Source: Faecousia sp.
GTDB taxonomy: Bacteria > Bacillota > Clostridia > Oscillospirales > Oscillospiraceae
Reading direction: 5' to 3'
Assembly (NCBI GenBank): GCA_045638225.1
Contig: JAZUAW010000056.1
Coordinates: forward strand, 8,480 to 72,479
Length of the DNA: 64,000 bases
The position numbers were made by a program, and so were the translations under genes. The notes under the pieces were generated by a model. It was not told where the DNA came from. It made no database searches and saw only the letters and a program-made list of their open reading frames with translations. Below, in pieces: positions 2,959 through 64,000 of the stretch. The stretch's first letter is position 1; each line of letters starts with the position of its first letter.

Positions 2959-2960
2959 AT

Positions 2961-4953: not shown

Positions 4954-6147
4954 TCACTTCTGTAATAACCAATCAGCAATATCAACAACGTGAATACCCT
5001 CATATTGATATGCTTCATGTCTCGTGCGCGCGATAATCATCTTGGGATATGCGTCCTTGATATTAAGTAATGGATCTACTTCACGTCTAAACGTTTCCTC
5101 ATCATTGATATTATCTGATACCTGAATATAAATCTTCTCATTGCGTTTTATAGCAACAAAGTCGATTTCCTTTTTATATAGTACGCCAACATAGACTTCA
5201 TAGCCTCTCCGGAGCAGCTCGATAGCAACAATGTTTTCTAGCATTCTGCCGTAATTCATGTTTTTTGTACCCAGCTTAGCATAGCGGAAAGCATGATCAC
5301 TTAGATAATACTTATGGCTTGCTGCAAGATATTTCTTTCCTTGAATATCGTATCTGCGAATTTTATAGAACGCAAATGCATTACAAAGATACTGGATATA
5401 TGAACCGACGGTTTTGTGATTAATAGTATCCTTTTGGCGGACAAGAGTATCCGTTATACTTCTAGCAGAAGTCAGATTTGAAACGTTGTCCATAAGAAAA
5501 TCGACAATGCGATCCATCAGTTCTCTATTGCGAATTTTATATTTCTGATGAATATCCCTTATGATTAAAGTTTTAAAAACTTCTTCTATATAGTCGTACT
5601 TTGCTTCTTGGTCTTTGTACAAATAAGAACCCGCCATACCGCCTTCCTTCATATATCTGTCAAATGCAAGATATCTATCCGAAAGGGAATGATATGTCAT
5701 GAACTCAGCAAAAGAAAATGGATACATCTTCACTTGATAGGTTCGTCCCGTGAACAATGTTGCCAAATCAGAGCTAAGCAAAAAGGCATTAGAACCAGTA
5801 ATATAGATATCATACTTCTCTAATGAGTGCAGGTTGTTGATTGCAGTTTCGAAATTCGCACACATTTGAACTTCATCAATAAAGACAAAGTTATCTTTTG
5901 CATCATCATACAGGCTCTCTATGTAATCATTTAGTGCATGATACTCTTTTAGATGTTCAAATTGTGTCCTATTAAAATCCACATGAATAATGTTTGCATT
6001 AGGATTAGCTTCGCAAACATACGTTTTAAATGCTTCCAATAATTTTGATTTACCTGATCTGCGAACGCCTGTAATCACTTTAATATCCGGGGTGCTAATA
6101 ACATTAACTAACTTGTTTAAATAATCTTCTCTTGTGATGAGTTTCAT
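4954..6147 (-). CDS. AAA_14/DUF4143-type ATPase (AAA+, wHTH, PD-(D/E)XK-like C-terminus)
   Basis: GVRRSGKS, FIDEVQ, ITGSNAFLLS, ENIVAIELLRRG, KEIDFVA...YIQVS. ATG at 6147 follows a GAGGTG RBS (the track starts at 6156). Confidence 0.85.
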   Translation of the reverse strand: MKLITREDYLNKLVNVISTPDIKVITGVRRSGKSKLLEAFKTYVCEANPNANIIHVDFNRTQFEHLKEYHALNDYIESLYDDAKDNFVFIDEVQMCANFETAINNLHSLEKYDIYITGSNAFLLSSDLATLFTGRTYQVKMYPFSFAEFMTYHSLSDRYLAFDRYMKEGGMAGSYLYKDQEAKYDYIEEVFKTLIIRDIHQKYKIRNRELMDRIVDFLMDNVSNLTSARSITDTLVRQKDTINHKTVGSYIQYLCNAFAFYKIRRYDIQGKKYLAASHKYYLSDHAFRYAKLGTKNMNYGRMLENIVAIELLRRGYEVYVGVLYKKEIDFVAIKRNEKIYIQVSDNINDEETFRREVDPLLNIKDAYPKMIIARTRHEAYQYEGIHVVDIADWLLQK

Positions 6148-6179
6148 CCTAATCACCTCAATAGTATTATATCAGGACT

Positions 6180-6970: not shown

Positions 6971-7273
6971 TTACTTGTAGGCAATTTGGGAAGAATTCAT
7001 GGGTTCAAATGTGATTTTCAGCTTCATGCCCAAACCTTCAGCCAATCTGCGAAGTGTTTTAATAGAGGGGTTTGCGTTTCCGTTTTCCAATTTGCTGATA
7101 TCGGACTGCGCAATGCCAGTTCTCTGCGAAAGCTCCTGCTGGCTCATATTTACAGTATTGCGTGCATCAATGATAGCCTGCTTGATAGAATACTCTGCTT
7201 CCAGAGCATCATATTCTTTTTTTACTTCTGGATCCTGAAGTTGTTCATTCAAAAAATCTCTAAACTCACTCAT
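6971..7273 (-). CDS. XRE-family HTH protein (HigA-like antitoxin)
   Basis: MSQQELSQRTGIAQSDISKLENGNANPSIKTL. Confidence 0.85.
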   Translation of the reverse strand: MSEFRDFLNEQLQDPEVKKEYDALEAEYSIKQAIIDARNTVNMSQQELSQRTGIAQSDISKLENGNANPSIKTLRRLAEGLGMKLKITFEPMNSSQIAYK

Positions 7274-7336
7274 CTTGAAAGTTCCTTTCTGCTAATCAGG
7301 CACGCATTCCTACCATCCGTTTTACTCTTCTAATAT

Positions 7337-7363
7337 ATTATAGGATATATCCCATAATGTCAA
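7337..7363 (-). promoter_or_regulatory. Sigma70-type promoter with an embedded palindromic operator
   Basis: Minus strand TTGACA-TTATGGGATATATCC-TATAAT (or TAATAT at 17 nt); TTATGGGA-TATA-TCCTATAA is an imperfect inverted repeat. Confidence 0.55.
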
Positions 7364-7374
7364 CACCTTTTCAT

Positions 7375-7746
7375 TTAGGTATAAATCAGCTCGGCGTTGA
7401 CGATCTCCATGGCGCGGATGTGGATGTTATTCATATGCGCAACCCATTCGCTGGTATCGTCGATCTTCAGCTGCTCGGTGACATTTTCATCCTCTGCCAT
7501 GGTGTGAATCAGGCGGTCAAACATCTGCTCTGCGTGGGTGTTGATCTCCTGCAGGTGGGACTCCAGGGCATCATCCAGCAGCATGCCTACATACAATGCT
7601 TTCTGGTGCTCCTTCAAGAAGTGGCGTCTGCGCTCGCCCCAGATGCCGGTCAGTTTCACTTCCGGTACCGTTACGCAAGGGACGTAATAATCGCCCTCCA
7701 GCTTATACCAAAGTCCGTTCTTTTTATCGTAAGTATAGTGTTCCAT
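7375..7746 (-). CDS. tnpV: TnpV-family transposon-encoded protein
   Basis: GDYYVP...GIWGERRRHFLKEH...VTEQLK..D..EWVAHMNNI...EIVNAELIY; GGAGG RBS before the ATG at 7746. Confidence 0.8.
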   Translation of the reverse strand: MEHYTYDKKNGLWYKLEGDYYVPCVTVPEVKLTGIWGERRRHFLKEHQKALYVGMLLDDALESHLQEINTHAEQMFDRLIHTMAEDENVTEQLKIDDTSEWVAHMNNIHIRAMEIVNAELIYT

Positions 7747-7757
7747 AGCATCCTCCT

Positions 7758-8654
7758 TTATTTCTTCGGGGGCCGGTGATACTGCATCAGCCGGCAAGTG
7801 TCCAGTTTGTTCTGAAAGCGTTTCTGCGCCTCGCAGACGACTTTTTGCAGGATTTCTGGGTCGGTATCCCACTGAGCAATTCCGCGATTATATGCGCCCC
7901 TGCGCTTGTCGTCAATGATGAACGGATCGATGCCGTAGCGCAGGCACTCCTTCACCATGAGGATTCGGCCCACTCTGCCGTTATAATCGTCAAAGGGGTG
8001 AATACGCTCGAATTGAACATGAAACGCAAGGATTTGCTCCAGCTTGGCGGCTTTTCGCTCGTAGCCTTTGATCAAATCAGCTACCGCTCTGTTAACCTGC
8101 TGTGGGGGAATGCCCAGTTTATCGGGCTTAATGCGGAACTCGCCCACGCCGGTCTTATGGTTCTGATCGGCATAGGTGCCATAAGTCAGGAAGTGATGCA
8201 CCTGCTTGACGAAGGACACCGTCAGCGGAGCGGTCACATTGTCCACCACATAGCGCATACAGATAAAATGGTTCATGATCTCCACGATGTCGTCCACCTT
8301 GGTGGCCTCAAAAGCGGGGGAAATTCGGTTGGTACGATAGATTTCTTCAACCTGCTGCCGAGTTAGACGATTGCTGGCCATACGGCTGGAGCTGTAGGCC
8401 AAATCCACCTGTATGTATTCGTAGATGCCAAAGTGGTTGTTGCGTTCGCGCTGATAGAGGATCTTTTTTACGAGGGGTGTTGGGGGTGTTTCTTTTGCCG
8501 TCTGGGCACCCGGCTTCGGTGTTCCTTCCGGTATTTGCCAACCGAGTTCTGTTTGCACTGCACCCGGGACTTTTCCTTCCTTGCAATAGCGGCGAACCAT
8601 CGCACCGGAAATGTCCCAGATAACAGCAGTTTCATTTGCGGAATAGAATTTCAT
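7758..8654 (-). CDS. Fic-domain protein with N-terminal HTH
   Basis: HPFDDYNGRVGR Fic motif; N-terminus WDISGAMVRRYCKEGKVPGA. Confidence 0.85.
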   Translation of the reverse strand: MKFYSANETAVIWDISGAMVRRYCKEGKVPGAVQTELGWQIPEGTPKPGAQTAKETPPTPLVKKILYQRERNNHFGIYEYIQVDLAYSSSRMASNRLTRQQVEEIYRTNRISPAFEATKVDDIVEIMNHFICMRYVVDNVTAPLTVSFVKQVHHFLTYGTYADQNHKTGVGEFRIKPDKLGIPPQQVNRAVADLIKGYERKAAKLEQILAFHVQFERIHPFDDYNGRVGRILMVKECLRYGIDPFIIDDKRRGAYNRGIAQWDTDPEILQKVVCEAQKRFQNKLDTCRLMQYHRPPKK

Positions 8655-8840: not shown

Positions 8841-8882
8841 ATGGCATTCAAGAGGTCAGCGGTTCGTTTTCACTTGCCGCCA
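8841..8882 (+). pseudogene. 3'-half relic of tRNA-Ala(GGC), att-like
   Basis: ATGGCATTCAAGAGGTCAGCGGTTCG (8841-8866) is the anticodon loop to T-loop of a Firmicutes tRNA-Ala(GGC); the 5' half is missing. Confidence 0.6.
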
Positions 8883-9054: not shown

Positions 9055-9083
9055 TTGTAAATCCGGGGGGAATGGTGTAGAAT
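9055..9083 (+). promoter_or_regulatory. Sigma70 promoter of the WYL operon
   Basis: TTGTAA-N17-TAGAAT, with TG just before the -10. Confidence 0.55.
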
Positions 9084-9106
9084 AAAGTGAATAAGGGGGT
9101 GGAGCC

Positions 9107-10336
9107 TTGGAACGGAAAGAGAAACGCACTGGAATTAAGCATTATGAGCGTATGCGACGCTATTTAGGTGGCATCTATCTTTACGGCTTTCTTAAGCGTA
9201 AAGATTTCGCTTCTAAGAATGACGGCTCTGCCAAAAACTACTCCTTTATGATACACCTGATTCAGGCGCTTTTATCCATTGGGCAAGATGGGGAGCAAAA
9301 ACGCGACAGCCACAGCATCCGCAGAAAATACCACCTAAGTGGGAATAGCCGACTGACGGACTCCTATATGTACCATGCACTAGACCCACAGTCGAATATG
9401 GTAGAGTTTCTGCATATCCTGGCAACTCTGAATTCCGCAGATAAAAGCATGCCGCAACTGAGCATGTGGGTAGAAAGTCATGCTTACAGTAGCCCGTCCA
9501 AGGGAACCATCCGTGATCGGGTGAAAACACTGACTGATTACGGATGCATAGAAAACAAGGCCGACAAAAGTTATACCTTGGCAGAGGATGGCCTGCGGCT
9601 GCTGACAGACGCCCAGCTGCTTCAACTGTATCATTATGTCTGTTTTGTTTCCGGCATCACCTATCCCCGGGTGGCTGGCAGTTTTCTTAGGCGAACGCTG
9701 GAACGGTATCTCTATGCAAAGAATCTGGCGGTACCCCAGCAATCACCAATGCTACTGCGGCACAGTTCTAACCATGTGATATTCGACGAAGAATTGCTGT
9801 ATTTGCTTCAGACATATATGAAAGAACGGATGTGGGTATCATTTGACGGCAGAAAGCGGTTGCCGGTGCAGGTGCGTGTGGATGCCCAGCTGGGGCGATG
9901 GTATGTGTTGTGCGTTGATGAAAACATCCGCCCTTGCATCGAAAAGCTTGCCAATGTGGAAACGCTAGAAGGACAAGAAGTTGCAAGTGATCTACAGTGG
10001 ACCCGGGCGGCTAAAACCATCGAAAAAGCCTATGCCCATGTCCTGTTTTCCAGCAAAACCCGAAAGCCGGTTCTGGTGGAGGCAAAGTTGGGCTTTGCCA
10101 ATGCACCGGGGCTTTACCGACAATTTCTTCGAGAGATTCGCGTGGGCAAAGTGGTGCAACGGCCGGATGGAAAATACTACGAGGTATGGACCGCCGATCC
10201 TTTGGAATTGAAGCCGTTCTTGCGAACCTATGCACCTTATTTACGGATTCTGCCCGGAGACCATGACCTGACCCAATTGCTGCGCAGCGATCTTTCCCGG
10301 ATGCTGGATGCGCTGGATAAGGAGGAAAGTGTATGA
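9107..10336 (+). CDS. WYL-domain protein 1 (wHTH-WYL-WCX-like)
   Basis: TIRDRVKTLTDYG HTH-like; RLPVQVRVDAQLGRWYVL WYL-like; DPLELKPFLRTYAPYLRIL WCX-like; TTG start. Confidence 0.7.
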   Translation: MERKEKRTGIKHYERMRRYLGGIYLYGFLKRKDFASKNDGSAKNYSFMIHLIQALLSIGQDGEQKRDSHSIRRKYHLSGNSRLTDSYMYHALDPQSNMVEFLHILATLNSADKSMPQLSMWVESHAYSSPSKGTIRDRVKTLTDYGCIENKADKSYTLAEDGLRLLTDAQLLQLYHYVCFVSGITYPRVAGSFLRRTLERYLYAKNLAVPQQSPMLLRHSSNHVIFDEELLYLLQTYMKERMWVSFDGRKRLPVQVRVDAQLGRWYVLCVDENIRPCIEKLANVETLEGQEVASDLQWTRAAKTIEKAYAHVLFSSKTRKPVLVEAKLGFANAPGLYRQFLREIRVGKVVQRPDGKYYEVWTADPLELKPFLRTYAPYLRILPGDHDLTQLLRSDLSRMLDALDKEESV

Positions 10337-11325
10337 TCTTGCTACATCCTTTGCAAAGTCGGCAATTCCAGTTTTCTTTGGCACTGCTGGAAATACTTGG
10401 AACCGGACGCAGTTTGGATCGAGCTGGTGTAACACAGCTTGGTGCCGGCTTCCATGTGGACAGTATCATGCTAGATGAGCTCATGGAATCACTCTGTAAA
10501 AATGATTTTCTGGAATTAGTTCCGGATCCCAAACGTTGGGAGTGCTGTCGGGCAGCCACGCCTGCCATGCGGCCCCGTATGCCTGCAGGAACGCTGGAGC
10601 GGGAGTACTTGCAGTACATACTGCGCCTTCCGGAGGCGGAATTGTTTCTGGAGGAGGATGTCCGACAAATGCTGATGGCACAATCACCGGACTGGTACAG
10701 CGGTATCCGCCGCTTTTCCCCCCGGGGGGAATGCCGAACAGATGCTGTTTTAGGAGAGAACTTCCGTACAATTCTGACTGCGATCCACCAAGGTAAAACC
10801 ATCATCTACCGCTACCGCACCAAGGGTTCTAACCGGTACCAACAGGCAGAATGTGTGCCATGGAAACTGGAATACAGCGCCTATGACCGCAGGTGGTGGA
10901 TCATTCTCTACGACCCAGAAGAGGAAAGAACCATTAAGTCTGTGTTGAGCAATCTGCGGGATGTGCAGCTGGGCACCAGACACCTGATCTCCCAGGAACA
11001 GATTTTGGCGGCTATGGATAAGTTGAAGATGCCGGAGCCGGTGGTAATCCGGGTGGAAAATGTACACAACGGACTGGAGCGGTGTTTTTTGCAGTTTGAG
11101 ACCCAGGAATTTCAACAGACACGGTCTTTGGGCAACAACCAATACGAGCTTTCCTTTACATACTATAAATTTGATACAGAAGAGACCCTGCGGAAGCTAC
11201 TGTGCCTGGGGCCGGCAGTAACGCTGGTGGGTCCTCGATCTTTGAAGGAAGCCCTTCGCCAGCGGCTGCTGTTGGCGCTAGAATTAACAGGAAAGAGGGA
11301 AAAAGATGCGCAGACTATACTTTGA
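10333..11325 (+). CDS. WYL-domain protein 2
   Basis: AIHQGKTIIYRY...PWKLEYSAYDRRWWII; C-terminal LLCLGPAVTLVGPRSLKE; ATGA overlap with the previous gene. Confidence 0.8.
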   Translation: MILLHPLQSRQFQFSLALLEILGTGRSLDRAGVTQLGAGFHVDSIMLDELMESLCKNDFLELVPDPKRWECCRAATPAMRPRMPAGTLEREYLQYILRLPEAELFLEEDVRQMLMAQSPDWYSGIRRFSPRGECRTDAVLGENFRTILTAIHQGKTIIYRYRTKGSNRYQQAECVPWKLEYSAYDRRWWIILYDPEEERTIKSVLSNLRDVQLGTRHLISQEQILAAMDKLKMPEPVVIRVENVHNGLERCFLQFETQEFQQTRSLGNNQYELSFTYYKFDTEETLRKLLCLGPAVTLVGPRSLKEALRQRLLLALELTGKREKDAQTIL

Positions 11326-14068
11326 GAATGTGTCACTGGAAGATGAGCAGATAATTAGCTGCCACAATGCGCTGGTGGAGCTGGCGCAGATCGACCTTGT
11401 GAGAATATTTTCTTTGGCAGCCAAGGAGGCACACGCAAATGCGCCAACCGCCATTACTGCACAGGAATTTTGGGAAAACCTGTTTATCATCAACGGAACC
11501 GGAAACAAGCCGCTTCTGGAAGAGGGAAGACGCTACAGCAGCCGGGTTCTGCCCGCAGACCCTTACCTGGAACTGGATCTGCCGTGTTGGCTCAAATATC
11601 TGTACCGCGGGCGCCAACGCAAAGATGCGCAGAACAACTGGATCGATGACACCGATGCAGTATTGCAGTTTTTCCGGATCAACTACGATCATGCAAACCA
11701 CCAGTATCTCTCGGATAACTATGGTAGACAGCTGAATCAGATGATCAACATCCGTAACCAGCGCATTGGACACCAGAGCCCTGCCGAATTGCAGCGGCTG
11801 AATATGGAAGCGTTAACAAAGCATAGGGACACCATGCTGGAACTGCTGGAGCCCATGTGCAGGAGTAATTGGTCCGGACAGCAGGCGAGTCAGGCCCTTG
11901 TTGACAAGATTCTGGATGTTTTTTATGCCAGACTGGGTGAAGTGCGCTATAGTATTGCGCATCTTTTACGCTATATTAATATCCCGAGCGGAGAAAGTGC
12001 CCGGGTAGAGAAACTCATGATCGCCGCCGACCTGCAGGTTGACGACGGCAAGGTTACCTTGTCCATGAATCCCACAGAGTTTGCGGATGATCTGCTGAAG
12101 GTCATGAAAAGGGCCGGCATTTCTGATGAGGCTCGTGCGGCTCAGTTGAGGAGTCGCCTGCCGGGAAACGAAGCAGAGGTCGCCAGTTTGTTTATCCAGA
12201 AAGATTCCGACAACAGCATGGAGAAACAGTCCATGAAAGCACTGGAGGAGCTGGTAGCTGCCGGTAATCATGATGCGGAATTTGAGATGGCCTGGCGCTG
12301 GTACACCAAAAAGGACGGCGATGTAAAGGAAAACCGGACAGAGGCGGTTAAGTGGTTTGAAAAAGCTGCTCATGCAGACCACGCACATGCCCAGAGAGTA
12401 ATGGGGATAATGCTTAGAGGCGGATGGTACATAAAGCAGGATTTGGATGCTGCCCTTTACTGGCTGCGTGCGGCCGCAGAAAATCGGGATGACCGGGCCC
12501 ACTATCTTCTGGGTGAGTGCTATGAATGTGGGATCGGTGTTGAAAAAAATGCAGAAAAAGCATTCTCGTGGTACGAAAAGGGCGCAACCCTAAAAGACAC
12601 CAAATGTCAGCTTGCAAGAGCCCGCTGCATGATGCAAGGAATTGGCACGGTACGGGATGTGGATACAGCCGTGTTTGAGTATCAAAAATTGGAGCGCAAG
12701 CAGATTCCAGAAGCGAGCTGGTATCTGGGCACCTACTACAAGCCTGACGATCCTGAGAAAGCGTTGCGCTATTTCCAAAAGGCGGCAGACTTGAATTACT
12801 CCAAAGCGCAGTATGATCTTGCTCTGTACTATGAAGAAGGGGCGTACTTGGAAGAGGACCCGCATCTGGTGGAAGAACTGGTAAATAAAGCAGCCATAGG
12901 CGGCGATCCCCGGGCTCAGTATCGACTTGGCTGCGCTTTCAAAAACGGCACCAATGGAAAACCCAAGGATGATAAACAAGCGTTTGCGTGGTTTTTGAAG
13001 GCAGCCAAACAGGGGCATGTTGACAGCAGCTATGAAGTGGCCTGCTGCTATAAGGATGGCAAAGGCGTTGAGAGGGATCAATGGAAGGCTGACAAATATC
13101 TTCGCCTGCCTGCAAAAAAGGGAAAACCCGAGGCGATGGGTGATCTGGGTATCAGTTATCTGGGAACAAACAATCATCTTTTGGTGGATGATGCCCTTAG
13201 GTATCTGGAACAAGCAGCCGAGCAGGGCTATGCTCCGGCAGCGCTGCGGTTGGGTGAACACTTCGATAGCTACGACTATTTCCAGAAAGATAAACTGCTT
13301 TTCTGGTATGAGAAAGCCGGAAAATTGGGCGACCCGCAGGGATATTACTGTTTGGCAAAGTACTACGAAAGACAAGCCTGGTATTTGGGTAGCGAAGATG
13401 AGGATGTGGTGGATGAAGCCGAAATACAGAAAGCACTTCCATGGTTCTGGAAAGCCGCCAACCAAGGACACGTAGATGCAATGCGGGAATTGGCGAACTA
13501 TCTCCTCAGCGGCAAATACACGATAGCTGTACCTCATTATCACGATATGAAGGCTTTGGGCATAATCCTGCTGAAAAAAGCCATGAGCAAGGGATCGGCC
13601 TGGGCGGCAGAGGCTTTGGGCCGCTTTTGGGAGAAGGAGGGGGATACAAAGGAGGCCATCTCGTGCTACCGTTTCGCAGGCAAAACGCTTTTATCGGCAC
13701 AATATCTGCTGGCAGAGCTTCTGCACAAAGAAGGAAGCGGACGGGAAGCATTGGAGTATTACCGCTACGTGGCTGAGTATGGGCATAAAGAAGCCCAGTT
13801 CATGATGTACAGAGTTTATATGCAGGGCGTCTGGGGTGTGAAAAAAGACCCTCACGAAGCCATGAAATGGCTTCGCAAGGCGGCAGAAGCAAAGTATTTG
13901 AAAGCACTTCACCAGATGGGGCTTTGCTATGAACTGGGCATTTGTGTGCCAGTGGATATTCACACTGCAATGGAATGGTATGAAGAACTTCTGGAATATG
14001 ACTATTATGAGGAGTACGAACATTACGATGCGGTGCGGAACAGATTGAACGAACTGAAAAACAAATGA
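11306..14068 (+). CDS. Putative Swt1-like HEPN domain fused to a long Sel1-like repeat array
   Basis: LDLPCWLKYL...MINIRNQRIGH (R-x5-H); roughly a dozen or more SLR units (A..WF.KAA..G...AQY.LG). Confidence 0.75.
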   Translation: MRRLYFENVSLEDEQIISCHNALVELAQIDLVRIFSLAAKEAHANAPTAITAQEFWENLFIINGTGNKPLLEEGRRYSSRVLPADPYLELDLPCWLKYLYRGRQRKDAQNNWIDDTDAVLQFFRINYDHANHQYLSDNYGRQLNQMINIRNQRIGHQSPAELQRLNMEALTKHRDTMLELLEPMCRSNWSGQQASQALVDKILDVFYARLGEVRYSIAHLLRYINIPSGESARVEKLMIAADLQVDDGKVTLSMNPTEFADDLLKVMKRAGISDEARAAQLRSRLPGNEAEVASLFIQKDSDNSMEKQSMKALEELVAAGNHDAEFEMAWRWYTKKDGDVKENRTEAVKWFEKAAHADHAHAQRVMGIMLRGGWYIKQDLDAALYWLRAAAENRDDRAHYLLGECYECGIGVEKNAEKAFSWYEKGATLKDTKCQLARARCMMQGIGTVRDVDTAVFEYQKLERKQIPEASWYLGTYYKPDDPEKALRYFQKAADLNYSKAQYDLALYYEEGAYLEEDPHLVEELVNKAAIGGDPRAQYRLGCAFKNGTNGKPKDDKQAFAWFLKAAKQGHVDSSYEVACCYKDGKGVERDQWKADKYLRLPAKKGKPEAMGDLGISYLGTNNHLLVDDALRYLEQAAEQGYAPAALRLGEHFDSYDYFQKDKLLFWYEKAGKLGDPQGYYCLAKYYERQAWYLGSEDEDVVDEAEIQKALPWFWKAANQGHVDAMRELANYLLSGKYTIAVPHYHDMKALGIILLKKAMSKGSAWAAEALGRFWEKEGDTKEAISCYRFAGKTLLSAQYLLAELLHKEGSGREALEYYRYVAEYGHKEAQFMMYRVYMQGVWGVKKDPHEAMKWLRKAAEAKYLKALHQMGLCYELGICVPVDIHTAMEWYEELLEYDYYEEYEHYDAVRNRLNELKNK

Positions 14069-14078
14069 AAAAGGTTTT

Positions 14079-14106
14079 GCCACCGGCTTTTGCCGGTGGC
14101 TTTTTT
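14079..14106 (+). terminator. Rho-independent terminator
   Basis: GCCACCGGC-tttt-GCCGGTGGC then T6. Confidence 0.8.
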
Positions 14107-14117
14107 CTGTTCTGGGA

Positions 14118-14166
14118 GATGTGCTACCGCTTTTTGTACCACAAAGCCCTTTGCGCGGGATATACT
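14118..14166 (+). promoter_or_regulatory. Conserved box GATGTGCTACCGCTTTTTGTACCA + N19 + TATACT
   Basis: 22/24 identical to 15472-15495, with the same spacing to a -10-like hexamer. Confidence 0.65.
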
Positions 14167-14195
14167 ATGGCTACAAAAACACAGGAGGTGCCGAT

Positions 14196-14993
14196 ATGGG
14201 AGAATATACCCTTGAGAAATATTTAAGCCAAGATACCGGGTCTGCGGAGGTGCAGTGCGCCATCGGTCGGTGCTACGCCAAGGGCGATGGCTGCCTGGCA
14301 GACTATACGGCTGCAGTGCAGTGGTTTGAGAAAGCTGCCCTGCAAGGAGATAGCCGCGCCGGATTCTACCTGGGACAGTGCTACTTTTTTGGTGCGGGAG
14401 TTCAGCAGGATTATGACCAAGCCCACCAGTGGTTTCAGGTAGCCAGTAAAGACTGGTTTATGGCCAATCGATATTTACGGCAGCACTACTTGAACGGGAA
14501 TATATCGCTGAAGCCGGATTTCTCTAACTTTCAAGGCCTGCCGGAAGCAGCCCAGCGTGGTAGCGCATCGGCATACACCGCCATGGGGAATTGCTTTTTC
14601 TTGGGGAAAGTTGGCTACCGGGATTTTCGGACGGCTGTTCAATGGTACCAAAAGGCTGCCCTACAGGATGACCCGGAAGCCCAGTTCTGTCTGGGTTATG
14701 CCTATGTCACCGGTGCCGGAGTGACGCAAAATCGCGAACAGGCATTCGCGTGGTTTGAAAAGTCTGGACGGCAGGGGTTTATGCCGGCGATACATAACCT
14801 GGCAGTGTGCTGCAAACACGGTTGCGGTACAAACTACGATCCCCAGCAAGCCAAGCAATATCTGGATCAGCTGCAAGGTATAGGCACCTGCAGCGCAACC
14901 ACTACCCGATTGTATGCGCCGGAAGGACTCTGGCGAGATCGCTACATGGATAGTCTGACGACAATCCTGCGGGAGGAAAAAGGTTCGGATTAA
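14196..14993 (+). CDS. Sel1-like repeat protein
   Basis: AVQWFEKAALQGD, AQFCLGYAYVTGAGV; GGAGG RBS before the ATG at 14196. Confidence 0.85.
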   Translation: MGEYTLEKYLSQDTGSAEVQCAIGRCYAKGDGCLADYTAAVQWFEKAALQGDSRAGFYLGQCYFFGAGVQQDYDQAHQWFQVASKDWFMANRYLRQHYLNGNISLKPDFSNFQGLPEAAQRGSASAYTAMGNCFFLGKVGYRDFRTAVQWYQKAALQDDPEAQFCLGYAYVTGAGVTQNREQAFAWFEKSGRQGFMPAIHNLAVCCKHGCGTNYDPQQAKQYLDQLQGIGTCSATTTRLYAPEGLWRDRYMDSLTTILREEKGSD

Positions 14994-15025
14994 CAATTCA
15001 CACCCATGAAAAGGAGGAAATAAGG

Positions 15026-15466
15026 ATGAACAATCATAATCAATACGACGAAGCCTGCTACTGGACCATTCACGGGATCCTGGCAGATGCACAAAATGGC
15101 GACCCCGATGCTCAGTGCGCTGTGGGAGAGAGACATTGGTTCGGCGACCTGATTGATCAGGACCGATCTCGGGCTGTGCAGTGGTATCAACTGGCGGCGG
15201 AAAGGGGGCATACCTATGCACAGTGCTGCTTGGGGTATGCTTATGCCACCGGGGAGGGTGTCCGCAAGGATCCGGCACAAGCTGTTCGCTGGTATACTAT
15301 GGCTGCGGAGCACGGTGACCTGTGCAGCCTTCGCGGTCTGGCTGCCTGCTACGCACAAGGCTTTGGCGTGGAACGCAATCTGAAAATGGCCTTTGAAATT
15401 ATGTGCAAAGCCCTTACGCTGACGGCCGGTGCTACCCTGGATAGCGGTGGTTTTGACCGTCCGTGA
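15026..15466 (+). CDS. Short Sel1-like repeat protein
   Basis: AVQWYQLAAERGHTYAQCCLGYAYATGEGV; AGGAGG RBS. Confidence 0.85.
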   Translation: MNNHNQYDEACYWTIHGILADAQNGDPDAQCAVGERHWFGDLIDQDRSRAVQWYQLAAERGHTYAQCCLGYAYATGEGVRKDPAQAVRWYTMAAEHGDLCSLRGLAACYAQGFGVERNLKMAFEIMCKALTLTAGATLDSGGFDRP

Positions 15467-15471
15467 ACACG

Positions 15472-15520
15472 GATGTGCTACCGTTTTTTGAACCAATTTG
15501 GCACATGTTTGTGCTACCAT
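15472..15520 (+). promoter_or_regulatory. Conserved box GATGTGCTACCGTTTTTTGAACCA + N19 + TACCAT
   Basis: Second copy of the 14118 box. Confidence 0.65.
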
Positions 15521-15560
15521 ACAGCTATCGAGCAATGCGAAACCAGAAAGGAGAACTGCT

Positions 15561-16226
15561 ATGAAGAATATGACAATCATGAAGTTTGCGATCATCGTAA
15601 TGACCCTGAGCTGTCTGCTTACGGGCTGTCGAACACCATCTATACATACCCAGGCTTCGGATGCACACGTTTGCGCAACAATCGCGACACAAAGGGAGGA
15701 TTCTGTTCCGCCATCCACAAAGCCAGCACCCACCAAACCTGCGCAGACAGAACCGTCCGCTACTGTGCCTACGGAGACAGAACAGGCATCCACCGAACCT
15801 GCGCAAACCGAGCCGCCCACCACGGGAGATCTGGATGCCTATGCGCCGGATGCCTACGCACTTTCTATTTTGGCGGAGGTGAATCGGGCGCGGGCAGAGC
15901 ATGGTCTTCAGGAACTGGTGCTGGATGCTACCATCTGCCGTCTTGCCTATGTGCGGGCGCGGGAGTCGGCCGTGCAGTGGAGCCATACCCGACCCAACGG
16001 ACAGCCCAGTCACAGCGTGTATCCGGAGCATGGGGTTCCCTGGCCCAACTGCGTGGGGGAGAACCTTGCCAACTATGCCCTGCAGGATGCCGCGCGTATT
16101 GTGAATGCTTGGATGGGTTCCGATGGACACCGCAAGAACATTCTGTATCCGGATTATACCGGAGCGGGCATAGCCGTATATTTTGATGGCGAAAAATACT
16201 ATATTGCCAACCTGTTTTTCGGTTGA
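15561..16226 (+). CDS. CAP/SCP-domain lipoprotein
   Basis: Lipobox LLTGC, P/T linker, VNRARAEHGL, SHTRPNG, GENLA, WMGSDGHRKNIL. Confidence 0.85.
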   Translation: MKNMTIMKFAIIVMTLSCLLTGCRTPSIHTQASDAHVCATIATQREDSVPPSTKPAPTKPAQTEPSATVPTETEQASTEPAQTEPPTTGDLDAYAPDAYALSILAEVNRARAEHGLQELVLDATICRLAYVRARESAVQWSHTRPNGQPSHSVYPEHGVPWPNCVGENLANYALQDAARIVNAWMGSDGHRKNILYPDYTGAGIAVYFDGEKYYIANLFFG

Positions 16227-16244
16227 CGTAAGGAGGTGCTAACT

Positions 16245-16841
16245 ATGCAAGTACAGGTTAAATCCGCAGGGGGGATCAGCTTGATCCCCATGGAGACCAG
16301 ACATTTATCCAAGCGGCGTATCTTTATCCAGGGTGAGATCACCATGGAAAAGGCCTGCGATTTCGCAGATAAGGTTCTGCTGCTCAACGATGAATCCGAA
16401 ACCCAGTGCATCGACGTATTTATTACCAGTCCCGGAGGAGAGATCCAGGCAGGAATGCTGATGTACGATGTGATTCAGTCTTCCGAGGCCCCGATTCGGA
16501 TGTTTTGCCGAGGAGCTGCCTACAGCATGGCGGCTGTGCTGTTTGCCTGTGGCCGCCATGGCCGCTATATGCTGCCCAATAGCGAGTTGATGCTCCACGA
16601 GCCCCTCTTGGGCAATGCGGTGCGAGGTAATGCGTCCTCCATCCGCATCATGTCTGAAGAGTTGCTGGAGGTCAGCGGCAGATTGAACCAGCTGCTTTCT
16701 CAGCATACCGGCCGATCTCTGTCGGAAATCGAGGAAGCTTGCAGCTATGATCACTTCTTCACTGCCCCCCAGAGCGTAGACTTCGGTCTGGCTGATGGAG
16801 TGGTAGGATATATGCAAATGAAAGGAGACAGACCTCTATGA
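16245..16841 (+). CDS. clpP: ClpP-family peptidase (accessory copy)
   Basis: ITSPGG, AYSMAA (Ser), LMLHEP (His), YDHFF (Asp), DFGLADGV. Confidence 0.85.
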   Translation: MQVQVKSAGGISLIPMETRHLSKRRIFIQGEITMEKACDFADKVLLLNDESETQCIDVFITSPGGEIQAGMLMYDVIQSSEAPIRMFCRGAAYSMAAVLFACGRHGRYMLPNSELMLHEPLLGNAVRGNASSIRIMSEELLEVSGRLNQLLSQHTGRSLSEIEEACSYDHFFTAPQSVDFGLADGVVGYMQMKGDRPL

Positions 16842-18106
16842 ATTTCGACACCACAATCCTTGCCCGCGGCTGCCGATACAGCACCGACTGTTCCACCACA
16901 GGACTGAATAACAACCAGATTGTGGTGGGAGGCAGTGGCAGCGGTAAGACCATGTCCATCACAGAACCGTGCCTGCTGAACACCCAGCACAGGAATCTGA
17001 TCGTGACTGTTACCAAGCCGCGGATTGTCAGCAAGTACACGCCCTTGCTCACCAGCCGGGGCTATCGGGTGGAGACGGTAAATTTTGCCCAGCCAGAGAA
17101 AAGTGCACTGGCTTTTGACCCCATGTGCTTCATTCGCAGCGACCGGGATATCACCTTCCTGGCGCAGAGCATCGTGCGGGCAAATCCTCGTAAGAAGGAG
17201 GAAAACAAAGCAGACCCCTACTGGGACGATGCCGCTACCAGCCTTATGAGTGCCCTCATTGCCGGTGCTATGCTCCGCAATCCCGGTGCCGGCTTTGCGG
17301 AAGTACTTACCATGTTCCGGGCTATGGAAGTGAATTACGGAGAGACCATCAGCACCAACTACGACCAGTTCTTCAACGGAGTGCACCTCAGCAGTAGAGG
17401 TAAGTTTGCGGTAACCAACTGGAAGTCTTTCTGCAATCTGCCCGCCAGGACTGCCGCCTGTGTCGTCAGCAGTCTCGGCGTGACCATAGGGCATCTGTTT
17501 GGTGCGGAGCTGACGCAGATGATGCGCAACCCTCGCAAGGTGGATTTCCGGGCGATGGCACAGGAGAAAACGGTGCTGTTTGTGGTCTCATCTCCGGTGA
17601 ACCCCGGATTGAATTCCTTTGTCAGTCTGTTTTACGCAACAGCTATGAAGGAATTGTTCGAGTTCGCCGAGGAACTTCCGGATGGGATACTCCCTATCCC
17701 TACCCACTTGGTCTGTGATGACTTTGCCACCGGGGCACCCATCCCCCAGTTCGACCAGTACATCTCCATCATTCGGGAGAAAGCGCTCTCCGTAACGCTG
17801 CTGTGCCAGTCAGAATCGCAGCTGGAGAGTTTGTATGGCAAGGCAGGCGCCACCACGGTCATCAACAACTGCGACAGCTACATCTACACCGGGTCCATGG
17901 ATCTGAACACGGCCAAGAATGTGAGTCTGCGACTGAACATTCCGGTGGACGAGGTGCTTGCCATGGGGCTGGGCACGTTTGCGGTGTTTCGCCGGGGTGA
18001 GTTGCCGAAGGTTACCCAGCGGTATCCAATCCTGGAAGATCCGCTGTACCAACAGGTGACGCGGGAGTATGAACATTACCGACAGGGGCAGGAACCTTGT
18101 CGGTAG
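16838..18106 (+). CDS. VirD4/TraG-like (T4CP) ATPase without N-terminal TM helices
   Basis: GGSGSGKT, DPYWDDAA, LVCDDFA, IRE..LSVTLLCQSESQLESLYG, IINNCD-type motif. Confidence 0.8.
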   Translation: MNFDTTILARGCRYSTDCSTTGLNNNQIVVGGSGSGKTMSITEPCLLNTQHRNLIVTVTKPRIVSKYTPLLTSRGYRVETVNFAQPEKSALAFDPMCFIRSDRDITFLAQSIVRANPRKKEENKADPYWDDAATSLMSALIAGAMLRNPGAGFAEVLTMFRAMEVNYGETISTNYDQFFNGVHLSSRGKFAVTNWKSFCNLPARTAACVVSSLGVTIGHLFGAELTQMMRNPRKVDFRAMAQEKTVLFVVSSPVNPGLNSFVSLFYATAMKELFEFAEELPDGILPIPTHLVCDDFATGAPIPQFDQYISIIREKALSVTLLCQSESQLESLYGKAGATTVINNCDSYIYTGSMDLNTAKNVSLRLNIPVDEVLAMGLGTFAVFRRGELPKVTQRYPILEDPLYQQVTREYEHYRQGQEPCR

Positions 18107-18151
18107 ATGACGCTGCTGTTCATCATCAAACAACAGAAAAGGAGGTTCTCC

Positions 18152-19309
18152 ATGTACAATGAAACAATGGATTCTATCCGCAATAACCCCTTCCTGAAGG
18201 ATCTGGAAGAAGCAGTTGCACAGTTTGGAATGTGTGGCATCTTCGCTTGGGAACACCGTTCCGAACAAATCCAGGACAAAGGTTTCTATTTCCTCTGCGG
18301 TTATGATATGCAGTCCGTGGAGGCTGCCGCAGAACAGCTGGAGGACCTGTATGCGCTTCAGCGCAGCAGAAAAAGCATCCGGCTGGATTTGCATATTTGT
18401 AAAGTAACAGACCGTTCTGCGTTCAATGTCCATCAGGAGGTGATGGAATACTGTCTTTGGGCATCAACCATGCGTTTTCTGTTCAACTGGGCAGGCCTGA
18501 AAAACTGTCCACAGCGTATTTCTTTCGTGTTTCTGCAAGTCGTCTTGGCGCTCTATGAGAAATCCCAGTCTTCCAAACTTGGTGAGAAAGAAAAGGCACG
18601 GCAGGAAAAACTTCTAAAGCGCTATCTTCTGCGCCAGGGGGAGAAGGAACGTCTGACCGACGGCGAATACCTTCCGTTGAAAGCACATGAGAAGCCGGAA
18701 AAGATGGGGAAAGACGCACCGAAAAACCGGAAAACACTGCCGGAGCTTTTGTGCCGCTGTATATCCACCGTTAGCAAGACGCTGCCTTACAACGATCTGC
18801 CCAAGGTTTTGGAGGCTCTGGCGAAAAAACTGCATATTCAATACTTTCAGGCAAAACCGGTGGTGCCGAAGGTTTCGATGCACTCTGCATTGCTGCATCG
18901 GACGAAAAAATTTGAAGCCTTTGCTTATGTAACCTTTGTAATCGATTCACGGGACGAAAAGGAGTTTGACCTGATTCTGCTGGACTGTTATCAGCGCACC
19001 AAGAGCACACACTTGCGGAAAAAACGGATCAATCACTGCCGATTTGGTATTCGGCAGGAAGATTTGCCTGCGGTCAACCGGTGCGCAAAAGCCGCAGGTA
19101 TCGTAATAGCACTGGATCGGGAGAATCCGCATTTCAACTACAGGGGACACCTGGCCAATACAGAAAAAGATGGCTACGCCTTTGTCTGCGCCTTAAAGGA
19201 TGTCGATCGGTTGGAACGTGTGCTAGTGGATATAGCAAAGCACAGCAGGGAACGAAGACTCCTTTGCAAGGAGCATCTGGAAAGGGAAGGAGCGTGTGTT
19301 TATGGGTAG
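18152..19309 (+). CDS. Hypothetical basic protein
   Basis: Long ORF with AGGAGG RBS; no motif recognised. Confidence 0.6.
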   Translation: MYNETMDSIRNNPFLKDLEEAVAQFGMCGIFAWEHRSEQIQDKGFYFLCGYDMQSVEAAAEQLEDLYALQRSRKSIRLDLHICKVTDRSAFNVHQEVMEYCLWASTMRFLFNWAGLKNCPQRISFVFLQVVLALYEKSQSSKLGEKEKARQEKLLKRYLLRQGEKERLTDGEYLPLKAHEKPEKMGKDAPKNRKTLPELLCRCISTVSKTLPYNDLPKVLEALAKKLHIQYFQAKPVVPKVSMHSALLHRTKKFEAFAYVTFVIDSRDEKEFDLILLDCYQRTKSTHLRKKRINHCRFGIRQEDLPAVNRCAKAAGIVIALDRENPHFNYRGHLANTEKDGYAFVCALKDVDRLERVLVDIAKHSRERRLLCKEHLEREGACVYG

Positions 19310-19448: not shown

Positions 19449-19523
19449 GAGGGTATAGCTCAGCTGTGAGAGCGCGTGAATGTCATTCAAGCGGATATGG
19501 GGGTTGATCCCGCTTTCTGCCCA
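19449..19523 (+). pseudogene. Degenerate full-length tRNA-Ala(GGC)-derived pseudogene
   Basis: GGGTATAGCTCAGCTGtGAGAGCGCgTGAATGtCATTCAAG...GATCCCGCTT...CCA; D-loop GG, anticodon (GGC>GTC) and TTCGA are mutated. Confidence 0.65.
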
Positions 19524-19882: not shown

Positions 19883-22800
19883 ATGAATATGAAGTGGAAC
19901 AAAAAACAGGTGTTGTGCTTGGTGGCGGTGCTGGTGGTTACGGCTATTGCCATCGGCGGTATTGCCCTGTGGCTGCGTGAAAGCAAGTTGCAGCAGCTGC
20001 AGAATGAGGCTTTGGCAGAGCTGGAGCGCAATGTGGGTCGCTACGATGAGCAGAGCATCGTTCTGCGCCAAACCTCCAGAGCCAGAGCGGAGGAACTTGC
20101 AGATCTGTATGGTGCCACGCTGCGCATCACAAAAGATGGCCGCTTTGCCACCTTGACGCTTCCAGAGGGCACTACCATCCGGGATGTGTACGCCAGAGAG
20201 GAAAGCCGCCGGTACATCGGCGAAATGGAAGCGGACTATCAGGTTTCTATCAGCGAGCTGACAGAGACGGAAGAAGATGGCCAAAGACTGCCCCAGCGGC
20301 CCATTTATGGGGCCGGCGATGCGGACTATGCAAAGCAGACCTATCTGGATTATGTGAATCTGGATAGGACCTGGTACAGCTATACCGGCGCAGGCATGAC
20401 GGTTGCGGTTATAGATACCGGTATCGACACAGATCACCCGGAATTTGCCGGTCGCATCAGCGAATATTCCTATAATGCCACAGAAGATAAGATCGTCAAG
20501 GACTACAGTGATTGGTCCCTGATTGAAGATGAGCAGGGCCACGGTACCGCCGTGACCGGTGTGATCGCTGCGTCGATGAACAGCGGCAATGTGGTGGGCA
20601 TCGCGCCGGATGCCCAGATCCTTGTGATCAAGGCAGAGTGCGACGCGTATGGCAGTTTTAGAACATCTGACCTCGTTTTCGGTATCTACTACGCCATCGA
20701 GCGGGATGTCAATGTGATCAATATGTCCTTTGGTACTTATCTCCCCGTCAATCCCTTTGCCGAGGCACTCCAGCTGGCCTATGACAGCGATATCATCTGC
20801 GTGGCAGCTGCTGGCAACGACAATACCGCTACCCGCAGCTGGCCTGCTGCAGACGAGCACGTAATCGCCGTAGGCGCGTTGGATGGCTGGGAGCGGGCTT
20901 ACTACTCCAATGTCGGTGAGAATGTGGATGTCATGGCTCCCGGCACCACCTACACCACCAAAATGGGTGGCGGCTACGGTGATATGACCGGCACTTCGTT
21001 GGCAAGTCCCATTGTTGCCGGTGCTATGGCGCTGCTGGCGCAAAGAAATCCCTATACCAATTTTGAAGAGGTGACTGAGCAGCTCTATGCCGCCTGCTAT
21101 GATCTGGGCCCTCTGGGCCGGGATTGGCACTACGGTTTCGGTGCGCTGGATGTTGGCGCATTGATGCTGGAAGAGCGGGGCAAGATCACCTATGATATGC
21201 TCACAGACGAGTTGGAAAATATAGAGGGCCTGTATATTCAGGGCCACACCCTGCAGCAGCTGCCGGAACCGGAGCGGCTGTATGCCGTGTTCGACGGCTG
21301 GTATTATGACGATACCTTTACCCAGGAGTACAACTACTACACAGATAAATTCTACGGCGAAGAGATCACCCTCTATGCCAAGTGGGTCAATGAAGAGGAC
21401 GGCATCCCTTATACATATGTAATTTTGGATGACGGCACCGTGGAGATCCGCTCCTATACCGGCCACAGAAGATACATTACCATCCCTGAAAAGATCGAGG
21501 GCCGCATCGTCTCCTCCATCGGTGAAATGGCTTTTGCGGGCCAAACCAGATTGCGGGAAGTGACCCTGCCTTCCGGTCTGAAGCATATTGGCATCTATGC
21601 CTTCCAAAACTGTACAAACCTTGTTGGCATCCAGATTCCGGAAAATGTGACCGAGATTGGGGAAGGTGCGTTTGCCGGCAATATTAGACTCTCCACCGTG
21701 GCCTTCACCGGCAACAGCAAGCTGGAAACCATTGGCTATGCTGCATTTTCCGATTGCGGCAGCCTGCAGTGGATCGAGCTGCCGGCTTCTCTGCAAAACG
21801 TCGATGGCGCGGCCTTCAGCGGTACCACCCAATTGTACCATATCGGTGTGCAGCAGGGGAATACTGCCTTCCAATCCAAGGACGGTGTGCTTTTTGACAT
21901 CAGCGGCAGCACCCTGGTGGCCTTCCCGGCAGCATGGGGCAGCAGCTATACCCTGCCTGCGGAAACTACCCGCATTGGTCCCTATGCCTTTGCCTATGCA
22001 AAGATTAAAACCGTGGATCTGTCCAATGTGACCACCATCGGCGATTATGGCTTTGTTTGCGCGGAGCTGGAACGGGTGGATATTCCCGACGGCATGCGGG
22101 AACTGGGAGACCGTGTGTTTATGATGAACGGCAAGCTGTCTGCGGTGACATTCGGCCGTGGCTTGACAGAGATTTCGCCTGAAGCATTCTATGGCTGCGC
22201 AAGCCTCCAACAGGTCACCATTCCCAATAATATTTGCATGCTGGGAACAGGTGCCTTCGGAGCAACCGGGCTGAAAGAGGTGATCTTTGAGGAAAACAGC
22301 AGCTTGACGCTGATTGGCGGCGGTGCATTCATCGGCACCAAGCTGGAGCAGATCGACATTCCTGCTTCTGTTCAGGTGATCGGTGCCATGGCGTTTAAGA
22401 GCACCTCTCTGCAACAGGTCAACTTTGCCCCGGACAGTGTTCTGCAGGATATCGGAGGTGAGGCTTTCCAGGGATGCTGGTCTCTGCAGAGCATCCGGCT
22501 GCCCGAAAGTTTGAAATCCATCGGAGAATCGGCCTTCCAGAGCAGCGGCCTGACAGAAGTCACCATCCCTGCCGGTGTGATCTACCTTGGTGATGGCGCC
22601 TTCTCCCTGTGTTCCAACCTGACGGCTGTTTCCATTGCCGAAGGCAACACCAGCTACCACGATATCGACGGTGTAGTCTATGATCTGAGCAACACCACCA
22701 TCCACATCTATCCTGCCAACAGAGCAGGGGAGAACTATGTGCTGGAAAGCACCACCCAGATCGTGGCGCCTTGGGCTTTTGCAGGCGCTATGAATCTGAC

Positions 22801-63868: not shown

Positions 63869-63901
63869 GCGCTCACCTCCTTGTGTATGTGTGGTTTATA
63901 A

Positions 63902-64000
63902 TTACCACAATGCTACATCGTCAAGTCCATTCAGACCGGCTATAACGACAGTGCCATCCGACTTTAAACCCAACGTGCATGTTGAAGCGACAGCAACACT
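63902..64000 (-). CDS. C-terminus of a second RCC1-like repeat protein (partial, runs off the window)
   Basis: SVAVASTCTLGLKSDGTVVIAGLNGLDDVALW*. Confidence 0.7.
   Translation of the reverse strand, partial: SVAVASTCTLGLKSDGTVVIAGLNGLDDVALW

Follow-up and report, generated by a model that had tools for sequence, protein, structure and literature searches.

Gene organization of the locus

The DNA here analysed is a stretch of 64,000 nt from Faecousia sp. (assembly GCA_045638225.1, contig JAZUAW010000056.1, positions 8,480-72,479), referred to as the window, in which the block at 9,055-19,309 encodes a pair of WYL regulators, a HEPN-like protein fused to Sel1 repeats, two smaller Sel1 proteins, a CAP-domain lipoprotein, a ClpP-like protease, a VirD4-like ATPase and an orphan protein. 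A first-pass annotation had described nine co-oriented, partly overlapping genes, and ORF (open reading frame) calling indeed returns nine ORFs (g1-g9) on the + strand across 9107-19309, with the three overlaps at 10333/10336, 11306/11325 and 16838/16841; its assignments of the WYL pair, HEPN-like, Sel1, CAP, ClpP and solo coupling-protein-like genes are likewise supported by Pfam, fold and motif comparisons. The 1.89-Mb assembly of the same genome (contig with the block, C56) was searched for further copies and promoter sites, and the nine genes have no second copy in it, except for the housekeeping ClpP and a ClpP-like fragment at a contig end. GC content of the block is 49-57%, versus 52% for the genome.

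All features of the block lie on the + strand. A candidate sigma-A-like promoter (9055-9083; TTGTAA-17-TAGAAT, a match to consensus only) precedes the first unit, formed by g1 (9107-10336; WYL-A, 409 residues, HTH-WYL-WCX fold by comparison with DriD and PafBC), g2 (10333-11325; WYL-B, 330 residues, WYL and WCX in Pfam) and g3 (11306-14068; 920 residues). According to Pfam, modelling and motif analysis, g3 comprises a HEPN-like domain (residues ~12-212), a small linker domain and C-terminal Sel1 repeats. It is followed by an intrinsic terminator at 14079-14107 (hairpin 14079-14100), with a 9-bp stem of eight GC pairs and a T run. Then comes a first promoter box (14118-14141) with the -10 hexamer TATACT at 14161 (feature 14118-14166), heading two Sel1-repeat genes recognized by Pfam, g4 (14196-14993; 265 residues) and g5 (15026-15466; 146 residues). 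A second box (15472-15495) with a -10-like hexamer TACCAT at 15515 (feature 15472-15520) precedes g6 (15561-16226), a CAP/SCP-domain lipoprotein in Pfam with lipobox LLTGC and a Pro/Thr linker; g7 (16236-16841), a Pfam CLP_protease with an intact Ser-His-Asp triad; g8 (16838-18106), a soluble VirD4/TraG-like ATPase of 422 residues matching T4SS-DNA_transf, with Walker A at residues 31-38 and an intact Walker B; and g9 (18152-19309), an orphan with two homologues of 67-77% identity, without a Pfam match and with no usable Atlas match for one of these homologues. Positions of ribosome-binding sites indicate 14196, 15561, 16245 and 18152 as the likely true starts of g4, g6, g7 and g9.

The strong terminator after g3 implies at least two, probably three, transcription units, which, as read from the DNA, probably are WYL-A/WYL-B/HEPN-Sel1, box 1 with the two Sel1 genes, and box 2 with CAP, ClpP, ATPase and g9. 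A single nine-gene operon is ruled out by the same terminator (14079-14100), and the proposal of one nine-gene system has to be abandoned, since in addition its modules mostly occur apart, as detailed below. Among public sequencing runs no RNA run is listed, and contigs from the single DNA run (0.06 share) are scraps without the joints.

The WYL pair

Pfam gives no match for g1, and its WYL family membership is provided by the predicted fold (pLDDT, predicted local distance difference test, 76.6), for which DriD (E 2.6e-9) and PafBC (E 1.7e-8) are the best matches, followed by CapW and BrxR (E ~1e-5 to 1e-6). The pair consists of two HTH-WYL-WCX subunits, adjacent here and fused in the order A-B in two same-genus genomes (G992 and G879), with the motifs RWYVL and RWWII in their respective WYL domains and ~11-15% identity to PafBC/DriD. 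In the sub-lineage P0001-P0007 of WYL-A, EK replaces the R-x-x-x-I stretch that follows the WYL strand and that reads R-V-S-x-I in relatives, suggesting that the ligand may differ from that of PafBC; WYL-B has K-x-x-L-x-N in the matching stretch, as placed by sequence alignment.

The close subfamily of this pair comprises 12 GTDB loci, in which the partners are a Zn-ribbon kinase (5), vWA (4), PP2C (4), Sel1 proteins (5) and ClpP-VirD4 (1). Loci L022, L023, L024, L026 and L028, from Flavonifractor, Lawsonibacter and Dysosmobacter, combine the WYL pair and its box with a HEPN-kinase-Zn-ribbon protein, vWA, PP2C and Sel1. This TerY-P variant with a HEPN-fused kinase is arguably the better conserved parent system.

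A promoter box shared with relatives

The two boxes of the window are identical at 22 of 24 positions, and only one further site, unrelated-looking, is found in the whole assembly at up to three mismatches. They had been described as a private box present twice; the two copies are real, but the box is common to relatives. A motif sampler whose sole training set was the 270 nt downstream of WYL-B in seven relatives recovered one motif, TTCTAC-N-G-T5-GAAAAA, in all seven, each time with a -10 hexamer at an offset of exactly 40. Outside the training set the motif recurs upstream of ClpP in G992 and G879, of divergent genes in L021, L029 and L207, and of Sel1 in L028, with scores of 31.0 (before ClpP, L029), 37.3 (before the divergent gene, L021) and 35.4 and 26.3 (HEPN-Sel1 cluster of G879), the best score before ClpP among 64 metagenome ClpP genes being 22.7. 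In G879 the ClpP preceded by this box and the fused WYL pair are on different contigs. The locus of G1010, a genome in which no WYL pair was found, has no box (best score 10.3).

The window boxes share with this motif the CTACCG-T-run-G core and the same 24 nt from the G to the -10 hexamer. A strict pattern of core plus spacing, written with the window boxes in view, finds two sites in the 1.89-Mb assembly (the two boxes). The subfamily loci, 244 kb in total, contain six, and 1.68 Mb of other loci none. G992 has only two such sites, flanking the WYL fusion, with 0-1 matches in controls, and the pattern is absent from G879, G1010, G002 and G699. Presence of the box before two downstream promoters, together with its conservation alongside the WYL pair, ties the downstream genes to that pair, for which the box is quite probably the operator. 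The motif starts 40-41 nt and ends ~18-20 nt before the -10 hexamer. The box contains a TTGAAA-like hexamer, separated from the -10 by 21 nt; at 17 nt the hexamers are non-consensus. This arrangement suggests activation, and we lean towards the pair being an activator rather than a repressor.

Among the targets of the box in relatives are secreted proteins and signal-peptidase-like genes. In two genomes signal-peptidase-I-like genes stand under the same box (L207, 13315-13962; L029, 9165-9863), presumably S26-like proteins.

Distant WYL-A homologues occur in 15 of 398 other genomes of the class and in 16 of 400 of the family. Twenty-two distant loci were fetched (all 15 of the class draw and 7 of the 14 distant ones of the family draw), and 19 of them carry RtcB, Band-7, TROVE or DUF2828 genes. 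In L134-L147 and L194-L200 such pairs stand beside RtcB, Band-7, TROVE, DUF2828, RlaP, KptA or Hen1-Pnkp, many of them with a GCAAC-T7-CCGTGA box 37 nt before the -10. L137, L138 and L031 have their WYL pairs beside paired large STAND ATPases, without RNA-repair genes.

The regulon might answer RNA damage or envelope stress. Its pair, derived from RNA-repair regulators, would detect broken RNA and switch on proteins of quality control and of the cell surface, the HEPN protein clearing damaged RNA. In favour of this reading are those 19 loci, the RNA-repair-type motif recovered in them at a similar distance from the -10, and targets that include lipoproteins, CAP and signal-peptidase-like genes. 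Seeds for RtcB, Band-7, TROVE and DUF2828, on the contrary, give no match in the close-subfamily loci or in the genome itself, and HEPN and TerY-P partners are conflict-associated in the excerpts available of PMC3710099 and PMC11090510. The RNA-repair-type matrix does not score the window boxes (best value 11.4, at another site), so that the two operators are related at most. We regard this explanation as unlikely.

The HEPN-Sel1 protein

The N-terminal domain of g3 contains the motif R150-N151-x4-H156, and Rx3-6H is kept in 28 of 30 homologues (three two-domain proteins and one other long protein were left out of this alignment). Among 1.84 billion proteins the domain has just 33 representatives, its fusion partner being Sel1 or a kinase; four of the close-subfamily kinases carry it at their N-terminus. 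Its model (pLDDT 94.8) aligns with the Swt1 C-terminal domain (Z 7.5, root-mean-square deviation 3.7, 133 aligned residues) and with AbiF (Z 7.0, 155 aligned), and Atlas features of a g3 homologue favour HEPN_DZIP3/Swt1 clusters; none of the Pfam HEPN models matches g3. Motif conservation, the Swt1/AbiF alignments and the Atlas features indicate that the domain is likely an active Swt1-like HEPN, a predicted RNase. HEPN RNases act in abortive infection and toxin-antitoxin roles, and Sel1 fusions of DUF4145 are tabulated for Firmicutes (both in the excerpt of PMC3710099). In L027 a DUF4145 protein occupies the slot corresponding to g3.

The ClpP-VirD4-like module

The ATPase (~420 residues) belongs to a large family with 941 matches. 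Out of 261 confirmed metagenome loci, the 80 best (40 clusters at 90%) were analysed. ClpP lies directly upstream in 71 of these 80 loci (35 of 40 clusters), and for seven of the nine ATPase loci that lack it a contig end lies within 450 nt of the start; in the family draw, ClpP is near the ATPase in 7 of 8. The catalytic triad is intact in all 65 partner ClpPs, and g7 is 34.5% identical to the housekeeping ClpP of its genome. Hydropathy reveals no membrane segment in any of 70 ATPases, and g8 likewise has none. Homologues of g1-g5 and g9 are not seen in any of the 80 loci, and CAP is present in one.

Neighbours in the 40 clusters are YbjN (18), a second TrwB-like ATPase (9), kinases (7), Cas6 (6), nucleases (6), JAB-ThiF (5), TIR (3) and NACHT (3), and NACHT/STAND, RAMP/Cas and kinase/PP2C types are also seen. 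ClpP-VirD4 is, as far as these neighbourhoods tell, a separately travelling conflict-island cassette. A larger arrangement, from gut metagenomes (L039, L041, L061-L070, L091 and L103), joins YbjN-ClpP-VirD4 to a TrwB-like ATPase, a non-specific or HNH nuclease, an OmpA-like protein and an M48 peptidase, and is possibly a toxin-handling or secretion-like system.

The best family of g8 is VirD4 (NF045973, 206.8 bits, under the cut-off of 250). Both this match and the loci that often include a second TrwB-like ATPase, nucleases and OmpA-like proteins would fit a coupling protein for conjugation or mobilisation, left by an integrative and conjugative element (ICE) or serving as helper of an integrative and mobilisable element, or else one feeding an unrecognised secretion route, ClpP being incidental. 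This is very improbable, given that the g8 family lacks a membrane segment, that ClpP is nearly always adjacent, and that the family lies far from the VirD4s of ICEs in the tree and has no plasmid match at E<1e-60 (tblastn). In addition, when ORFs of three ICE loci were compared with the 80 ATPase loci only the ATPase matched (with no separate query for relaxases), and the genome of the block gives no match to the VirB4-like and VirB6-like ORFs. By reading, we take the ICE query ORFs to be VirB6-, PrgI-, VirB4- and TopoIII-like. Scans of IMG/VR with both alignments return no relative, nor does a PDB sequence search with the ATPase profile. An ordinary ICE cargo region, which the first-pass annotation had set against its own proposal, is not what surrounds the block, where no conjugation genes were found.

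As for a joint action of the two proteins, the prediction of a complex of two ClpPs and one ATPase scored 0.00 and was counted neither way. We find it doubtful, if conceivable, that g8 and g7 act physically together.

Proposed mechanism

We give an even chance to the block being a stress-inducible regulon under the WYL-A/WYL-B pair, next to a co-transcribed predicted HEPN RNase. WYL-A and WYL-B would act as a PafBC-like heterodimer, whose WYL domains would bind a fragment of damaged or foreign nucleic acid. The pair would then activate sigma-A transcription at the two promoters whose -35-like hexamer lies 21 nt, instead of 17, from the -10, switching on the Sel1 proteins and the CAP-ClpP-ATPase-g9 unit. 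HEPN-Sel1 would cleave cellular RNA, bringing on dormancy or abortive infection, and its Sel1 repeats would serve as sensors or inhibitors. Finally, a ring of the ATPase with ClpP might remove or process one component, either the RNase or a Sel1 inhibitor, and thereby set or reset the response. The weakest part of this mechanism is sensing. In its most complete version, the soluble VirD4-like ring ATPase would be the motor of its own ClpP protease, induced by a WYL heterodimer with a changed pocket to unleash or shut off HEPN-Sel1 as an inducible immune circuit; such a version appears improbable as a whole.

An anti-phage or anti-element role is evenly poised. It is the favoured one, by virtue of the neighbourhood (Gabija, PDC-S01), the HEPN domain and the TerY-P kin, and envelope or RNA stress may be the alternative, some box targets being lipoproteins or signal-peptidase-like proteins.

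Linkage of the two modules

Among 300 same-genus genomes, a close ATPase (59-63%) is present in three and a distant one in one. In G992 the fused WYL pair directly precedes ClpP-VirD4, with HEPN-Sel1 genes elsewhere; in G879 it is HEPN-Sel1 that does so, the fused WYL pair being on another contig; and in G1010 (85% complete) neither the WYL pair nor HEPN-Sel1 was found. In the class draw a single genome (G301) holds both WYL-A and the ATPase, unlinked. Variable components are CAP, g9 and the small Sel1 genes.

Further links were inferred from hits whose longest contigs are identical in size: a 68,267-nt contig (WYL-A 80%, HEPN-Sel1 71%, ATPase, and g9 67%), one of 11,690 nt (WYL-A 55%, HEPN-Sel1 48%, ATPase 70%), and one of 64,112 nt with WYL-A, HEPN-Sel1 and ATPase. 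Contigs of 11,308, 9,825 and 9,803 nt match with two markers. By a rough simulation, chance alone would produce 0.45 pair matches and 0.0005 triple matches, making the triples credible and the pairs weak, and the former indicate three further full or near-full blocks. The linked copies have diverged (WYL-A 53-80%, ATPase 70-83%), and their motifs are intact.

Several observations weigh against a regulon that joins all these genes. None of the 80 ATPase-anchored loci shows the WYL pair, just one of the 12 WYL-anchored loci shows ClpP-VirD4, and the family draw of 400 genomes yields 16 with WYL and 8 with ATPase, overlap 0. All seven linked ATPases fall in one clade of 25 rows (SH-aLRT 100, in a quick tree with labels set after the fact), so they are not of independent origin and linkage may be descent. 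The window boxes have diverged from the relatives' motif, having ACCA in place of AAAA and an additional base, and do not figure among the 15 top-scoring sites that the relatives' matrix finds in the genome; the strict pattern was drawn up once these boxes had been seen, and alternative spacings of it give 0-3 matches per genome. The two WYL arginines required for binding single-stranded DNA in PafBC (excerpt of PMC11804915) are without clear counterpart in the alignment, and sensing may be altered or lost. Regarding g3, MOB1 helix bundles tie with the fold scores of Swt1 and AbiF for the N-domain, and Foldseek with the HEPN model finds nothing. AAA+ partners dock on ClpP through the IGF loop, and no conserved loop of that type is seen in the 12 ATPases inspected. 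Finally, with secreted and signal-peptidase-like targets, envelope stress fits as well as defence.

As an alternative, a decaying derivative of the WYL-HEPN-kinase-vWA-PP2C-Sel1 system and a ClpP-VirD4 cassette could have settled next to each other by accretion at a hotspot formed by tRNA-Ala and been co-inherited without joint function, as the modules being mostly apart, the single ATPase clade with all links, the gene order that varies among G000, G879 and G992, the lost WYL-A arginines, and the tRNA-Ala relics with their adjoining defence island would all allow. On the contrary, three genomes that differ in gene order have the box before ClpP-VirD4, one of them with its WYL genes in trans, the box is missing where the WYL pair was not found, and motifs remain intact in linked copies diverged to the extent given above. 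Mere accretion is considered rather unlikely. Returning to the regulon, there are two modules and not one fixed system, namely (A) the WYL pair with the HEPN protein and (B) ClpP-VirD4. The box found before ClpP-VirD4 in genomes with the WYL pair, and not in G1010, makes it likely that module B was recruited into the WYL regulon in one lineage.

Boundaries and neighbourhood

An exact 26-nt internal/3' fragment of tRNA-Ala(GGC) lies at 8841-8866 (+), matching the tRNA of three same-genus genomes (those that yielded one out of five), and a decayed full-length copy lies at 19449-19523 (+; ~84% identity over 70 nt). Neither ARAGORN nor Rfam reports a tRNA in the window, relaxed ARAGORN gives noise only, and no intact tRNA-Ala(GGC) was found in the assembly. 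The tRNA relics noticed at first sight are both real, but they are not island-type boundaries of the block. A tRNA-integrated island bounded by the two was discarded: their order is reversed with respect to the usual one, with the 3' fragment on the left and the full copy on the right, the right copy is decayed, there is no integrase among the nine ORFs, and GC is host-like.

Left of 8840 the DNA is AT-richer than the block. It bears HTH, TnpV and HTH-Fic genes (6971-8654, -), typical mobile-element remnants that end at the tRNA-Ala fragment, a PDC-S01-like AAA_14/DUF4143 gene (4954-6156) and, next to it, a complete Gabija pair (1162-4868, -; GajA E 8e-188, GajB E 3e-213). Still further to the left, the contig has an ORF resembling a type I restriction subunit. 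The reversed relics, the missing integrase, the host-like GC and this AT-richer DNA with its Gabija, PDC-S01, Fic and TnpV genes suggest that the 8841-8866 fragment closes a low-GC defence island on its left, likely as its right attachment end (attR). The block appears to sit in a tRNA-Ala accretion zone. To its right, a secreted subtilase of 3364 residues (19883-29977, +) contains numerous leucine-rich repeats of the BspA type and ends in a dockerin-like duplication, and ~20-40 copies of a 114-nt coding repeat are found at 58900-63980 (-), whose 38-residue unit we presume to be RCC1-like.

Comparison with known systems

No named system corresponds to the block, as initially supposed: PADLOC 2.0 (library of 2023) gives just a generic WYL match and weak single-stretch ones. 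The literature consulted, including excerpts of PMC4012209, PMC11662680 and PMC12419801, contains no account of a WYL pair with HEPN-Sel1, ClpP and VirD4, nor of ClpP-VirD4(-YbjN); subscription papers were mostly outside it, and supplementary tables could list such neighbourhoods.

The closest regulators are PafBC of mycobacteria and DriD of Caulobacter, with which the pair shares adjacent, overlapping or fused HTH-WYL-WCX genes, a fold match, and a dedicated promoter motif whose spacing to the -10 is constant and which lacks a properly spaced -35. The PafBC motif, read by sigma adaptation, lies at -26 (excerpt of PMC11804915), whereas the box here is further upstream; the pair is moreover clostridial, distant in sequence, changed in its ligand arginines, and directed at HEPN/Sel1/ClpP-VirD4 genes instead of DNA repair. 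CapW and BrxR repressors likewise match in fold and provide examples of a WYL regulator heading a candidate defence locus. They are homodimers with an RWHVR motif (excerpt of PMC11662680), unlike the two divergent subunits with RWYVL and RWWII.

The combination vWA-PP2C-kinase is the TerY-P triad (excerpt of PMC11090510). In relatives the same WYL pair and box are followed by vWA, PP2C and a kinase with Zn ribbons at its C-terminus, but that kinase has an N-terminal HEPN, and the nine genes of the block lack vWA, PP2C and kinase, their HEPN being fused to Sel1. With Swt1/Abi2/DZIP3-like, DUF4145 and AbiU2 HEPN proteins, the latter with Sel1 neighbours, g3 shares Rx4-6H and a helical fold; it differs from named HEPN proteins in having no Pfam HEPN match and in forming a small Sel1- or kinase-fused family. 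Similarly, g8 has the P-loop and Walker B of VirD4/TraG (CD1115 family NF045973), but neither a membrane anchor nor conjugation genes around it, and ClpP as partner. The catalytic triad of g7 is that of ClpXP-type proteases, whereas the block encodes no AAA+ unfoldase and the conserved IGF loop is not seen.

This pairing of an intact ClpP with an anchor-less conjugation-type ATPase is near-obligate; if the two cooperate, they would form an ATP-dependent protease with a non-AAA+ motor. The box, for its part, provides a defined operator candidate for a clostridial WYL-pair subfamily, and the whole comparison depicts a single regulator family that has moved from the control of RNA-repair genes to that of an RNase/kinase or RNase/protease payload. 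Each part belongs to a known kind, and their combination is a candidate lineage-specific WYL regulon drawn from two mobile modules.

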